64,000 bases of DNA from Candidatus Babeliales bacterium. GTDB lineage: Bacteria; Babelota; Babeliae; Babelales; JANWKD01. The stretch covers positions 81,007 through 145,006 of the forward strand of contig CAVRJO010000001.1 of assembly GCA_963722255.1 (NCBI GenBank), in the 5' to 3' direction. How positions within the stretch are numbered: the first letter of the stretch is position 1; the number at the start of each line of letters is the position of its first letter. Under the pieces are notes generated by a model, which worked only from the letters and a program-made list of their open reading frames with translations, did no database searches and was not told the DNA's origin. This document shows, one piece after another, positions 23,629 through 31,363 of the stretch. Made by a program: the position numbers and the translations under genes.

Positions 23629-25695
23629 ATGAAGTTCTCTCTTAAAACCTCTTTAAAAGCAATAGTATTGCTTGCTTGCTCTATCACTATGTTTTGTGGA
23701 TTTATTATATCTGAATGTACAAATAATATATATGCTACTAAACAAAAACCTTTTTCAATGGGTCATGGGAATCAAAAATATAGCGTAATTCCTTGTATGC
23801 TAGATCTTAAAAATATAATACAAGCTCTTATTGAACATCATATTCAAAATAAAATAGAAGATGAAATTCCAGAAGAGTTTTTTATTTGCTACAAAACATT
23901 ACTCGAAGGCAAAAATATATTTTTGACCGAAGATTTATTAAAAGCATTAACCTATATAGCTTTGAAACTTGATGAACTCACTCAGTCCAAAGCTCCTCGA
24001 GAAGATGCACCAAATGGGAATCCAATTGTTGGCCCATTAATTGCTTGTGATATTAGTTCGAAAATTATTTTAGTAAATCAAATAATTAACCTTATTAAAA
24101 ATTGCTGTAATCAATTAGAAGAAGATTTTAATCTTACTTTTAGTTTAGTTACTGATTTAAATACTACGATCACAACGTGCATAACTGTCATTACTGCTTT
24201 AGACTTTTCAGCTACTGCGACAGTATTAGCTGATATACAAAATACTCTAACAGCATGTTGCCAAGAGATAGCAAATGAATTTCAACAAACATGGACCATT
24301 CTAGCAGCTGGATTCAATGAAACTTCAACGGTACTCGCTGATATAAAAAATACCATGACCTCATGTTGTGCGAATACTCAACTAAATTTTCAAGGAACAT
24401 TTACTCTCATTACATCTATACAAAATAGCAAGCGGTGTCCTCCTATTTCACTCTGCTCGCCAATTCAAATTATGGCACCAACAACTATTTCTACACCAGG
24501 TTTTTACTGTTTAAATAACGATATTAGTGGTCAAATTGTTATCAATGCAAATGATGTTACACTCGATTTAAATAGTCATACGATTACCGGAGGAGGTATT
24601 GGATCAGGAAGCGGCATTATTGTCAACTCAGGATTTAATAGGCTTATTAAGAATGGAAATATCACTGCATTTGATAATGGTATTCAATGTATAGGAAACA
24701 CTGATACCGTTATAGAAAATCTTATAATCACAAACTGTTTTATTGAAGGTGTTACCATAAATACAGGAACTGCCATTTTTCTAGATTCATTATCAATACA
24801 TAATATATCAGGAATTGGTGTTCATTTTGTTAATGGAAATGATGCAAGTAGTATAAAAAATAGTACCGTAACACAATCTGAACAAGGATTTGTTTTTGAT
24901 TTTATTTATAACAGCTTAATTCAAAATTGCAATGTTCTTGATTGTAGTTCAAATTTAAACATTACTGCAGGAAACGTTGGCGGTTTTATTATCAATAATG
25001 GAAGCTTTATTCAAATTAATAACAGCTCTGTTAAAAACTATGTAGGGCTTCAACGCATAGCAGGGTTTGCATTAGTTAATGCGGTAGAAAACGTTATTTT
25101 TAGTAACTGTACTGCTCAAAATATTGTTGCAACATTGCCTGGACAGGTCGTTTCAATCGCCTTTGGATATATAGCAGGTTTATTCACATCGCATTTAGAA
25201 TTCACTGATTGCTCAGCTTTATCTGTTACTGCTGATCAAATTGCTGTTTGCTTTGAAATAGAAGGCCCCGGAGTAACGCTTGATAAATGTAGCGCCCAAA
25301 TTTGCACATCAAATAGTATTCTTGCCGATGGTTTTCACTCCATAAGCAATAATGTATCTATAAGTTATTGCCAAGCTTATAAATGCAAACAAAACGGCTT
25401 TAATCTAGATTCATTTAACAATAGTACGGTACTTCAATATTGCCAAAGTGCATACAATAATAATGGATTTATCATTCAAACACCTTCCAGTCTGCTTGAT
25501 AATTGCGTTGCATTTAAAAATAATATTGGATTTAATCTTAATATTGCAGGAATCTCCCTTGTACATTGCTTTGCAGCACAAAATACTACTAATTACACAT
25601 TTTTTGCTAATAATGTACAAAATGCAAATACCCAAGTTAATAATGCCGCCCCTCTCCTTACCGGTCCCTTTGCAGGAGCAAACCTATTTATGTAA
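23629..25695 (+). CDS. secreted Cys-doublet-repeat / right-handed beta-helix-like protein, paralog 1 of a tandem array
   Basis: AGGA SD; signal peptide; 4 spaced CC doublets in repeats (...DIKNTMTSCC...); then ISTPGFYCL...VINANDVTLDLNSHTITGGGIGSGSGIIVNSGFNRLIKNG and ~20-25-aa periodic N/G/I/V-rich repeats; conserved C-terminal tail NANTQVNNAAPLLTGPFAGANLFM. Confidence 0.7.
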   Translation: MKFSLKTSLKAIVLLACSITMFCGFIISECTNNIYATKQKPFSMGHGNQKYSVIPCMLDLKNIIQALIEHHIQNKIEDEIPEEFFICYKTLLEGKNIFLTEDLLKALTYIALKLDELTQSKAPREDAPNGNPIVGPLIACDISSKIILVNQIINLIKNCCNQLEEDFNLTFSLVTDLNTTITTCITVITALDFSATATVLADIQNTLTACCQEIANEFQQTWTILAAGFNETSTVLADIKNTMTSCCANTQLNFQGTFTLITSIQNSKRCPPISLCSPIQIMAPTTISTPGFYCLNNDISGQIVINANDVTLDLNSHTITGGGIGSGSGIIVNSGFNRLIKNGNITAFDNGIQCIGNTDTVIENLIITNCFIEGVTINTGTAIFLDSLSIHNISGIGVHFVNGNDASSIKNSTVTQSEQGFVFDFIYNSLIQNCNVLDCSSNLNITAGNVGGFIINNGSFIQINNSSVKNYVGLQRIAGFALVNAVENVIFSNCTAQNIVATLPGQVVSIAFGYIAGLFTSHLEFTDCSALSVTADQIAVCFEIEGPGVTLDKCSAQICTSNSILADGFHSISNNVSISYCQAYKCKQNGFNLDSFNNSTVLQYCQSAYNNNGFIIQTPSSLLDNCVAFKNNIGFNLNIAGISLVHCFAAQNTTNYTFFANNVQNANTQVNNAAPLLTGPFAGANLFM

Positions 25696-25729
25696 GGTAA
25701 TAGAAAAATATACTATATAAGGAATAAGA

Positions 25730-29317: not shown

Positions 29318-29353
29318 TTCTTTTGATAAAAAATGTACTTAAGGAGAACCGTA

Positions 29354-31363
29354 ATGAAATTTTATGATGTATTAAAACTATCGTTATTAATGATTTTTTG
29401 TGTTTTTTGTCATATCAGCTCACAACCATTCGAAGATACCATTGCACAACTATCTCTTATTAATGATTATGTAGAACTTACTTCTTTAACATCTACACAA
29501 TTAGGATCTAAACTCAAGGAGATACTAACGCAAATACTTGAACATCAAGACAATATCCCGGAAGAGATTAATCGATGTTATCAAGCGTTACATGAAAAAG
29601 CTCAATCAGTAAAAATTAACGATCTAATCATAACATTGATGTATAGTATTGATTATAAAGCACCAGGATTACTTTTACATAAAAGTCTACGTGCTCCTCG
29701 CCCCAATGCATCTCAAAATAACAATTCAGTAGTAGGGCCAATAATTAACTGTGATCTTCATCAGCTCACTGAGCTGCTTGAATTTTTGCGAATTTTAATA
29801 ACGCTTTGTTGCGAACAATTAGAACAGGATTTTAACATTCTTTTTAGTGATTTAACTACCATACTAAATAATCTCAACACCTACTGCATTTTAATAACAG
29901 CTACGTCCGATTTTCAGGGTACATTTACCACAATTCAAGATATAAAAAATACCCTGACCACATGTTGTGCAAACATTACCCTTGATTTTGAAGCTACCTG
30001 GACTAGTATCTTTGCTGGCTTTGCAACAACTTTTACTGAGATTTCAGATATAAAAAATACATTTACGATCTGTTGTGATGAAATTCAACAAAATTTTCAA
30101 GGAACATTTACAGCATTACATAGTTTAAGCACAACAAATACCTGCATATCTCCCTGTGGCGCAGTTCCTATTACACAATCTACTATTATTACCGTCTCAG
30201 GTTCTTACTGCCTTTCTAAGGATATTGCTGGTCCAATAACTGTTAATGCAAATAATGTAACATTAGATTTAAATAATCATACCGTTTCAGGTTCAGGTGC
30301 AGGCAGTGGTGCGGGCATTATACTTAATGCTGGATCTAACAGGTTAATTAAAAATGGACGTATTGAAAATTTTGATACCGCAATTTTTAGTACAAACAAT
30401 GTCACAACTGCGTTATTAAACATTGTTATTAACACCTGCTTTATTGAAGGAATAACAATCAATAATGGAACCGATATTCATTTGGATTCACTCGTAATAA
30501 CAAGTATTATTGGTATCGGAGTTCATTTGACAGGAATTAACAATGCATATCTTATAAAAAATGTTTTAATTAACTTGGCAGAGCAAGGATTTATTTTTGA
30601 TACTATTTCTAATAGTCTGATACAAAATTGTGAAGTTACTGATTGTAACTCTCCTCTTTCGACACAAGGTTATGCAGTTAATGCTGGAAGCTTTAATCAA
30701 TTTGATAATTGCTCAGCTAAAAATCTTGTTTCAATAATTAAGTCAGTAGGTTTTTTCTTATTAAATAGCAACAATACCATACTCACAGACTGTACTGTTG
30801 AGAATATGATTACTAACGTTGGAGCCTCTGCCGAAGGTTTTGAATGTAATACTCTCTCAAGCGATAATGAATTATTACATTGTTCAGTTTTAAATGTTAA
30901 TGCTCCCGTTTTCACCGCTGGATTCGCTTTAGAAGGTACTGCTATTACAGCAATCGATTGTCTTACACAATCCTGTTTTACCTCTGATTTTAATGGTAAT
31001 GGCTTTGTGTGTACTGGTTCAAATATAGCATTAACAGATTGCCAGGCATTTAACTGTCAATCTGTTGGATTTAACATAACATCAACAAATATTACGCTGC
31101 AATTTTGCCAAAGTGCTTATAATGATACTGGGTTCTTGATTAACAATCCTAATGTTCTTATTGGCAATTCAGTTGCAGTAAATAATGGCTCCATTGGTTT
31201 TAATAGTAACTTTTTAACTCTAGCACTCTATCATTGTTTTGCTTCTCAAAATGGAATCAATAATTATGTTGGTATTCCTAATGTTCAAAATGCAAATACC
31301 CAGGTAAATAATACAGCACCAGGACTTACAGGACCTTTTGCAGGAGCTAATCTCTTTATCTAA
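29354..31363 (+). CDS. secreted Cys-doublet-repeat / beta-helix-like protein, paralog 4
   Basis: Start moved to the Met preceded by AAGGAG (MKFYDVLKLSLLMIFCVFCHISS); same architecture; tail NANTQVNNTAPGLTGPFAGANLFI. Confidence 0.7.
   Translation: MKFYDVLKLSLLMIFCVFCHISSQPFEDTIAQLSLINDYVELTSLTSTQLGSKLKEILTQILEHQDNIPEEINRCYQALHEKAQSVKINDLIITLMYSIDYKAPGLLLHKSLRAPRPNASQNNNSVVGPIINCDLHQLTELLEFLRILITLCCEQLEQDFNILFSDLTTILNNLNTYCILITATSDFQGTFTTIQDIKNTLTTCCANITLDFEATWTSIFAGFATTFTEISDIKNTFTICCDEIQQNFQGTFTALHSLSTTNTCISPCGAVPITQSTIITVSGSYCLSKDIAGPITVNANNVTLDLNNHTVSGSGAGSGAGIILNAGSNRLIKNGRIENFDTAIFSTNNVTTALLNIVINTCFIEGITINNGTDIHLDSLVITSIIGIGVHLTGINNAYLIKNVLINLAEQGFIFDTISNSLIQNCEVTDCNSPLSTQGYAVNAGSFNQFDNCSAKNLVSIIKSVGFFLLNSNNTILTDCTVENMITNVGASAEGFECNTLSSDNELLHCSVLNVNAPVFTAGFALEGTAITAIDCLTQSCFTSDFNGNGFVCTGSNIALTDCQAFNCQSVGFNITSTNITLQFCQSAYNDTGFLINNPNVLIGNSVAVNNGSIGFNSNFLTLALYHCFASQNGINNYVGIPNVQNANTQVNNTAPGLTGPFAGANLFI

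Follow-up and report, generated by a model that had tools for sequence, protein, structure and literature searches.

Four tandem genes encoding exported stalked beta-helix proteins, candidate spike adhesins, in a Candidatus Babeliales bacterium

A 64,000-nucleotide stretch of a Candidatus Babeliales bacterium genome (assembly GCA_963722255.1, contig CAVRJO010000001.1, positions 81,007 to 145,006; hereafter the window, whose numbering is used throughout) carries at 23629-31363 four tandem paralogous genes, the products of which combine a signal peptide, a stalk with regularly spaced cysteine doublets (CC), a beta-helix and a conserved C-terminal tail. We propose, with about even confidence, that these proteins are exported and form oligomeric spikes, stapled by disulfides, which act as adhesins for host glycans. 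The Babeliales belong to the Dependentiae, a widespread phylum of obligate protist parasites in which host attachment and entry are nearly uncharacterised; in this respect the Chromulinavorax and TM6 comparative papers mention nothing beyond type IV pili and surface antigens, which are unnamed and of unknown function. The family described here is lineage-specific, modular and under purifying selection, and its four-gene unit is found in at least five genomes, which makes it a concrete candidate for a host-recognition apparatus.

The four open reading frames (ORFs) are located on the + strand with spacings of 34, 27 and 15 bp, and their positions and sizes exactly matched those of the initial annotation, made from the sequence alone. 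Gene 1 (23629..25695, 688 aa), gene 2 (25730..27556, 608 aa), gene 3 (27584..29317, 577 aa) and gene 4 (29333..31363, 676 aa from the ATG at 29333) encode products that are 45-47% identical and can be aligned over their full length except in the N-terminal region. An AAGGA Shine-Dalgarno sequence was present 6-8 nt 5' of each start, with the exception of the first ATG of gene 4, which had initially been taken as its start. The second ATG of gene 4 (29354) is preceded by AAGGAG 7 nt upstream, gives the same MKF start as the other three genes and yields a product of 669 aa, that of the deposited P0009; judged from these signals it is probably the true start, and the gap before gene 4 would then be 36 bp. 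An AT-rich gap of 340 bp 5' of gene 1 (23289..23628, +) is the probable promoter region of the unit, and a hairpin directly 3' of gene 4 (31369..31420, +), folded by ViennaRNA with a dG of -19.2 kcal/mol, is a probable transcription terminator. With this gap before gene 1 and this hairpin after gene 4, the four genes look like one operon. The promoter and terminator consensus scans were uninformative in such AT-rich DNA, and a simple terminator scan missed the 31369-31420 hairpin. All four products start with a basic n-region and a hydrophobic h-region, read from the sequence, typical of Sec signal peptides (aa 1-30 in gene 1), and their cysteine content is 4.2-4.9%.

We found support for the beta-helix both by profile search and by structure prediction. 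The domain spans aa 277-657 of gene 1 (24457-25599), aa 190-577 of gene 2 (26297-27460), aa 171-545 of gene 3 (28094-29218) and nucleotides 30158-31267 of gene 4. The Pfam profile PF13229 (Beta_helix) matched all four genes with E-values of 1e-5 to 1e-6, its gathering score of 25.9 being exceeded by gene 4 (28.8) and narrowly missed by the other three (23.2-25.2). The AlphaFold2 (AF2) model of gene 3, a monomer built on a 14-sequence family alignment, exhibited a right-handed beta-helix over residues 171-546, with a predicted local distance difference test score (pLDDT) of ~90-97; the helix ended within 30 aa of the C-terminus and the tail was disordered. The interior of the beta-helix holds one cysteine per rung across nine rungs. 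The fold anticipated in the initial annotation is thus upheld by the gene 3 model, whereas at the level of the profile only gene 4 passes the cut-off. The order of signal peptide, CC module, beta-helix and tail was confirmed in each paralog by PF13229, by the gene 3 model and by the 62-81% identity of the tails.

The CC stalk covers aa 138-276 of gene 1 (24040-24456), aa 56-189 of gene 2 (25895-26296, four CC doublets), aa 37-170 of gene 3 (27692-28093, doublets 58/59, 83/84, 108/109 and 144/145, with C166-x3-C170 as the linker to the beta-helix) and nucleotides 29744-30157 of gene 4. A fixed layout, C-x18-CC-x23-CC-x23-CC-x34-CC-x20-22-C-x3-5-C-x17-YCL, was observed in 19 proteins from five genomes, and the doublets are invariant columns across 14 aligned sequences; by our own arithmetic, a protein with 4.5% Cys should contain about one CC by chance. 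The repeat units, first described as ~40 aa long, measure 25, 25 and 36 aa: the 25-mer is made of an 11-mer, [DE]FxxTFTxLxD, followed by a 14-mer, IKNTLTxCCxxxxx, and the 36-mer contains one 11-mer more. Genes 2 and 3 have four doublets each. A further correction concerns genes 1 and 4, which have three doublets and a single Cys at level 2, together with an insertion of +1 or +2 residues, all of which are common to their close orthologs.

Fourier analysis of hydrophobicity gave one dominant period of 3.58 residues (25/7) in the array stalks; a 25-residue repeat guarantees some power at 25/7, and no competing harmonic appeared. In relatives with very long stalks the hydrophobic period was 3.60-3.68 residues (~11/3). 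An insertion of 11 residues rotates the helical phase by only ~28 degrees, so length steps of 11 keep the phase. The AF2 prediction for the CC module of gene 3 consisted of two long helices with a pLDDT of ~50-56. On the evidence of this period, of the phase-keeping indels and of the model, the CC module behaves as a continuous amphipathic coiled coil of non-heptad, hendecad-containing type. When cysteines were excluded from the calculation of the hydrophobic moment, the two Cys of a doublet were positioned at -55 and +45 degrees from it, with the same azimuth at every level, and successive doublets were spaced 37 or 54 A along the helix. The disulfide ladder that had been suggested for the doublets is unlikely within one chain, since the doublets are ~37 A apart on one seam of a continuous amphipathic helix. 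In a parallel bundle each Cys of a doublet would face a different neighbour, so that interchain disulfide rings are the natural reading, and they fit the cysteine geometry better than an intrachain ladder does. The C-x3-5-C pair at the junction of stalk and beta-helix resembles the ring motif of fibrinogen. As in the C-x3-C rings of fibrinogen, the Cys ring of COMP and the CC knot of collagen III, interface cysteines would covalently close a parallel rod; those proteins are unrelated to the array proteins, whose rod would, unusually, carry four or more such rings in series, a feature that, if real, would be of interest for protein designers.

The region described initially as a variable spacer turned out, in genes 1 and 4, to be a conserved family N-domain of ~100 aa with the consensus ...LlrCYe.L.......DL.eALPel..., present in ~60 clusters and followed by a collar, KAPRPdap..IVGP..CDL. 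The N-domain and its KAPR/VGP motif lie at aa 31-137 of gene 1 (23719-24039), and the corresponding N-domain and RAPR/VGP motif at ~29423-29743 of gene 4. Gene 2 carries the collar only (RAPR...VGP, without the N-domain), and gene 3 only PIIVCD. The N-terminus is predicted to be helical; the AF2 model of aa 1-300 of gene 1 had a pLDDT of 45, too poor for a fold search. At the other end, the 30-aa tail, NVQNANTQVNNAAPGLTGPFAGxNLF[MI], is the most conserved segment, with 62-81% identity between paralogs and 66-94% between orthologs (aa 658-688 of gene 1, 25600-25692; aa 578-608 of gene 2, 27461-27553; aa 546-577 of gene 3, 29219-29314; 31268-31360 in gene 4). In a local hidden Markov model (HMM) search across all the fetched loci, the tail was detected in family members alone, and more distant relatives end in a looser motif, [FWY]xN[ILV]x[ILV]. 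A profile of the 45-aa C-terminus returned nothing at E<=10 against 5.8 billion proteins, a database for which this query is too short.

The four-gene array was also found in four other genomes or contigs, L001, L002 (= Candidatus Babeliales MAG, metagenome-assembled genome), L059 and L060. In a tree of the beta-helix region the proteins formed four orthologous groups, a to d for genes 1 to 4, and the order a-b-c-d was identical in all five genomes; RodA and an SPFH gene lie close to the array in L059, too, as they do in the window. Between paralogs, conservation was lowest in the middle and C-terminal rungs (31-49% identity), which have 72-81% identity between close orthologs, and the paralog-specific beta-helix bodies are conserved among orthologs. 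Because the window paralogs are 45% identical and their synonymous sites saturated, the ratio of non-synonymous to synonymous substitution rates (dN/dS) was calculated by the Nei-Gojobori method from the close arrays of L059 and L060 instead. The values were 0.18 for a, b and c and 0.32 for a partial d; by region, they were 0.08-0.30 for stalk and helix and 0.19-0.61 for the N-terminal region. The initial annotation had described a diversifying family. The conserved order and a dN/dS of ~0.18 indicate instead four old orthologous groups, that is, a stably differentiated quartet under purifying selection and not a rapidly diversifying one, and the substitution pattern clearly points to functional reading frames.

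Next to the a-b-c-d array of L060, on the opposite strand (9621-11426, -), we noted a fifth family member of 601 aa (= P0044), in which the N-domain is followed by a stalk of different pattern and a beta-helix, and the conserved tail is missing. A lipobox could be seen by eye in gene 1 (LLAC) and in the group a protein of L001 (SIGC); the other orthologs do not fit, and lipoprotein anchoring was not adopted.

The conserved quartet raises the question of whether the four products are chains of one obligate hetero-oligomer, with one chain per gene in a single four-chain stalk closed by heterotypic disulfide rings, comparable to the products of the three clustered fibrinogen genes; we regard this as decidedly unlikely. 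Beyond the gene order kept in five genomes, such an assembly would agree with the identical stalk layout of the four paralogs, with the C-x3-5-C spacing specific to each paralog group, and with the loss, in groups a and d of the window's lineage, of one Cys each at CC#2, which keeps the total at that level even. Fibrinogen chains are also encoded by clustered paralogs, and 11-residue repeats occur in four-stranded right-handed coiled coils, e.g. tetrabrachion. However, other Dependentiae loci hold three-gene arrays or single genes, the first unit of group c in L001 and L002 has lost 2 residues without a matching change in the other chains, the proteins with the closest folds form homotrimers, and the coordinated Cys loss happened only once. 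A more elaborate form of the same idea, still less probable, would have the four genes encode the four chains of one obligate hetero-oligomeric fibre, whose right-handed or untwisted stalk would be locked by serial heterotypic disulfide rings and would present a different beta-helix blade per chain. This would be a bacterial surface organelle of a kind not seen before, with which Dependentiae would engage protist hosts. Its rings would serve as a redox switch, keeping the fibre rigid outside the host and letting it loosen or release once it has been taken up into a reducing compartment.

We then consider the distribution of the family. An exhaustive CC-module profile search of 1.84 billion representatives returned 202 clusters at E<=1e-3 and 111 at E<=1e-10, with proteins of 60-3187 aa. 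With local HMMs these showed a common plan of signal peptide, N-domain and collar, a CC stalk of ~60 to ~1400 aa and a C-terminal domain, the tip being usually a beta-helix and otherwise a beta-helix plus WD40 propeller, a small Cys-rich unit or another type. P0033, for example, combines N-domain, CC stalk, beta-helix and WD40 propeller, and a member of the propeller type, P0039, sits on the window's own contig of 905,774 bp. In the Dependentiae genome GCA_023379005.1, three tandem members have stalks that are 85-90% identical and beta-helices that are 58-62% identical. A common N-domain and stalk of variable length with swapped tips is a pattern typical of fibre adhesins.

All named or taxonomically placed full-length members are from Dependentiae/Babeliales ('Candidatus Dependentiae' proteins), and a scan of species-representative genomes gave full-length matches from Babeliales only. 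The pattern used in that scan was derived from the generic beta-helix entry motif, and most of the 51 loci in other phyla match residues ~170-290 only and are not members. Searches of phage records, PHROGs and IMG/VR yielded no relatives. Pfam and NCBIfam contain no model that covers the stalk module, NCBIfam gave no match to the array proteins and Pfam the generic Beta_helix only, and neither PHROGs nor full-text literature searches yielded a description of a CC-stalk family, in agreement with the earlier remark that the architecture was not recognised as a described family. What is undescribed is thus the CC-doublet stalk module and the family restricted to Dependentiae, whereas the design of a stalked beta-helix spike or adhesin is already known. 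Long-stalk relatives matched the coiled-coil-prone Pfam model Baculo_PEP_C (P0023, 54 bits), in keeping with a coiled-coil stalk, and the window proteins did not match it at E<=1. This model is known to give convergent coiled-coil matches (PMC3695513), and homology to it was rejected as such a convergence. The cysteine-rich N-terminal family of Babela could belong to this superfamily, as its branch with propeller tips. The paper on that family likened it to low-density lipoprotein (LDL) receptors and contains no description of a coiled coil or beta-helix.

Two further loci contain relatives. A distant one without a stalk is encoded in the window at 38958..40706 (+, 582 aa). It has a signal peptide and an N/S/T-rich low-complexity linker that replaces the CC stalk, and it shares with the array genes the 'GLYCL...SNVIIDFN' entry into the beta-helix, the NGF rungs and the C-terminal motif 'NTTNY..VPNV' (Pfam Beta_helix E 3.7e-9; BLASTP E 9e-7 to gene 3). 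On another Dependentiae contig (L058, 6875-12682, +), two adjacent family ORFs of 995 and 894 aa share one reading frame, which is interrupted within the repeat stalk by a single stop codon (9896-9898); the pair could be one protein of ~1,900 aa broken by a pseudogenising mutation, a sequencing error or recoding.

The nearest structural neighbours of the gene 3 model were phage capsule lyases and depolymerases, which are homotrimers (K1 lyase 7w1c, K64-1 S2-4 9k4a and CBA120 TSP1-4), at sequence identities of only 8-15%. The sole PDB match of the family at the sequence level was the K1 lyase as well (E 1.7e-5), and its source is a shared rung motif, C-x-A-Y/F-x-N-x3-GF. Both matches would suit an alternative that we consider rather improbable, namely that the proteins are secreted polysaccharide depolymerases, beta-helix lyases or hydrolases that break down glycans of the host's glycocalyx, cyst wall or phagosome, with a stalk that serves only for oligomerisation. 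Beta-helix enzymes with disulfides are also classic secreted proteins. The catalytic residues of the K1 lyase are Tyr311, His373 and Arg397 (PMC8822698). In the alignment, His373 falls within a two-residue insertion that is missing from the family, Arg397 is opposite V/D/S/T and Tyr311 is outside the aligned region; as His373 and Arg397 are not conserved, the beta-helix is tailspike-like and yet no K1-type lyase. The depolymerase alternative also has against it the lack of any match to a Pfam lyase or GH28 family even at E<=1, the invariant columns, which are almost all structural G/C/N/F residues, and the occurrence of other tips such as the WD40 propeller, which suggest binding over catalysis.

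The tailspike-like fold might also be taken to indicate prophage or phage-derived tailspike genes, and it is the only point in favour of such an origin, which we hold to be practically negligible in probability. A tblastn search against 50,697 phage records gave nothing, there was no match to a PHROG tailspike family and nothing in IMG/VR, the neighbours are housekeeping genes (RodA, SPFH, tRNAs) in a synteny kept in relatives, and the products have signal peptides, not particle-binding domains. Compared with the phage tailspikes, the window proteins thus have neither a particle-binding domain nor a phage context and possess instead a signal peptide and a long cysteine-rich stalk. In a Foldseek search of predicted viral structures (BFVD), the best matches of the gene 3 model were beta-helix proteins of Klosneuvirinae (Barrevirus, Hyperionvirus, Klosneuvirus and Indivirus; E 4e-11 to 8e-9, 13-20% identity), which outscored the phage tailspikes. 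The likeness is at the fold level only, and sequence relatives were not found in IMG/VR. These viruses likewise rely on uptake by protists, and the resemblance hints at a shared strategy or at gene exchange among amoeba-associated parasites.

Among bacterial systems, the chlamydial Pmps and OmcB/OmcA are functional analogues, as tandem paralogous exported beta-helix families and a Cys-rich envelope of obligate intracellular bacteria. Homology to the Pmps was not detectable; the array proteins have no autotransporter barrel, with no autotransporter domain in Pfam at E<=1, and contain 0 GGA(I/L/V) and 3-6 FxxN motifs per protein. The analogy with the chlamydial cysteine-rich outer membrane complex leads to another explanation, in which the proteins would form a structural envelope lattice, a disulfide cross-linked rigid coat of the extracellular infectious stage that is reduced on entry. 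The very high Cys content, the export of the proteins and the obligate intracellular type of parasite all speak for it, and the strongly conserved tail could dock onto a common envelope partner. We judge it very unlikely, as the modular stalk and tip, with stalks of up to ~1400 aa, resemble projecting fibres, and many of the beta-helix cysteines are in the interior one-per-rung stack and thus unavailable for cross-links. A closer parallel in design is offered by the trimeric autotransporter adhesins (TAA) and the mosaic adhesive trimer (MAT) fibres of Bdellovibrio, which also have a non-heptad coiled-coil stalk of variable length with interchangeable binding domains, and whose families are enlarged in bacteria that depend on attachment to other cells. 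In sequence the CC repeat is unrelated to the TAA, and neither a YadA-type anchor nor TAA head or neck motifs were matched in Pfam or NCBIfam. For two-partner secretion (TPS; TpsA), the Pfam search gave no TPS domain, the N-terminus is helical and there is no TpsB-like neighbour.

In the spike adhesin reading, the four genes would form one transcription unit of a Dependentiae (Babeliales) bacterium that produces Sec-exported spike or fibre proteins. Each chain would consist, in this order, of an optional N-domain, the KAPRP...IVGP..CD collar, a coiled-coil stalk whose 11- and 14-residue units add up to ~19 nm, a beta-helix of ~7 nm and the 30-aa tail. In an oxidising compartment, parallel chains would join through the hydrophobic seam of the stalk, most likely as a trimer by analogy with the closest folds; each Cys of a doublet would bond to a different neighbour, so that an interchain disulfide ring would close at each of four levels, and the junction of stalk and beta-helix would be clamped by the C-x3-5-C pair. 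After export beyond the periplasm, the beta-helices would be the working ends, which would bind, and possibly cut, carbohydrate on the surface of the protist host or in the phagosome, and the four anciently diverged paralogs would provide four specificities. Phage CBA120 carries four tandem tailspikes. These tailspikes are among the fold matches, and four paralogs with four specificities would parallel their arrangement. The role in host interaction put forward in the initial annotation is a plausible hypothesis.

Several observations weigh against the spike adhesin reading. Oligomerisation and disulfides are deduced from a monomer prediction and from Cys geometry, and in that prediction the stalk has a pLDDT of only ~50-56. 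The +1/+2 insertions and the lost level-2 Cys of genes 1 and 4 break the helical phase. Genes 2 and 3, like all four L001 genes, lack the N-domain that is presumed to form the base, and the C-terminal tail is the most conserved part, so the spike could be oriented either way. Regarding surface display, the Pfam and NCBIfam searches revealed neither an outer-membrane anchor nor an autotransporter barrel nor any known sorting signal, and regarding glycan binding, no conserved sugar-binding or catalytic site was identified in the family.

The window contains several other features. Pyruvate phosphate dikinase (52446-54843, -) appears to be split between two overlapping ORFs, with PPDK_N and the mobile domain at 53455-54843 and PEP-utilizers_C at 52446-53534; a sequencing error, a frameshift or a pseudogene could account for this. 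At 19624-22189 and 33961-34720 there are series of small ORFs with signal peptides and without family assignment. Transposase or integrase fragments (11305-11802, 46415-46891 and 46940-47401, all -; rve, HTH_21, DDE_Tnp_1) are probably decayed insertion sequences, one of them beside tRNA-Phe (47764-47838). A group II intron is located at ~4300-6130 (-), with a reverse transcriptase/maturase ORF at 4388-5698 (RVT_1, GIIM), Rfam group-II D1-D4 matches at 5838-5916 and 5956-6127 and a local rise in GC to 0.41. Ankyrin-repeat proteins, which are typical of amoeba-associated intracellular bacteria, were detected by Pfam at 10243-11283, 12528-14657 and 51172-52392 (all -), and a secreted ankyrin-like ORF with no Pfam match lies at 33212-33772 (-).

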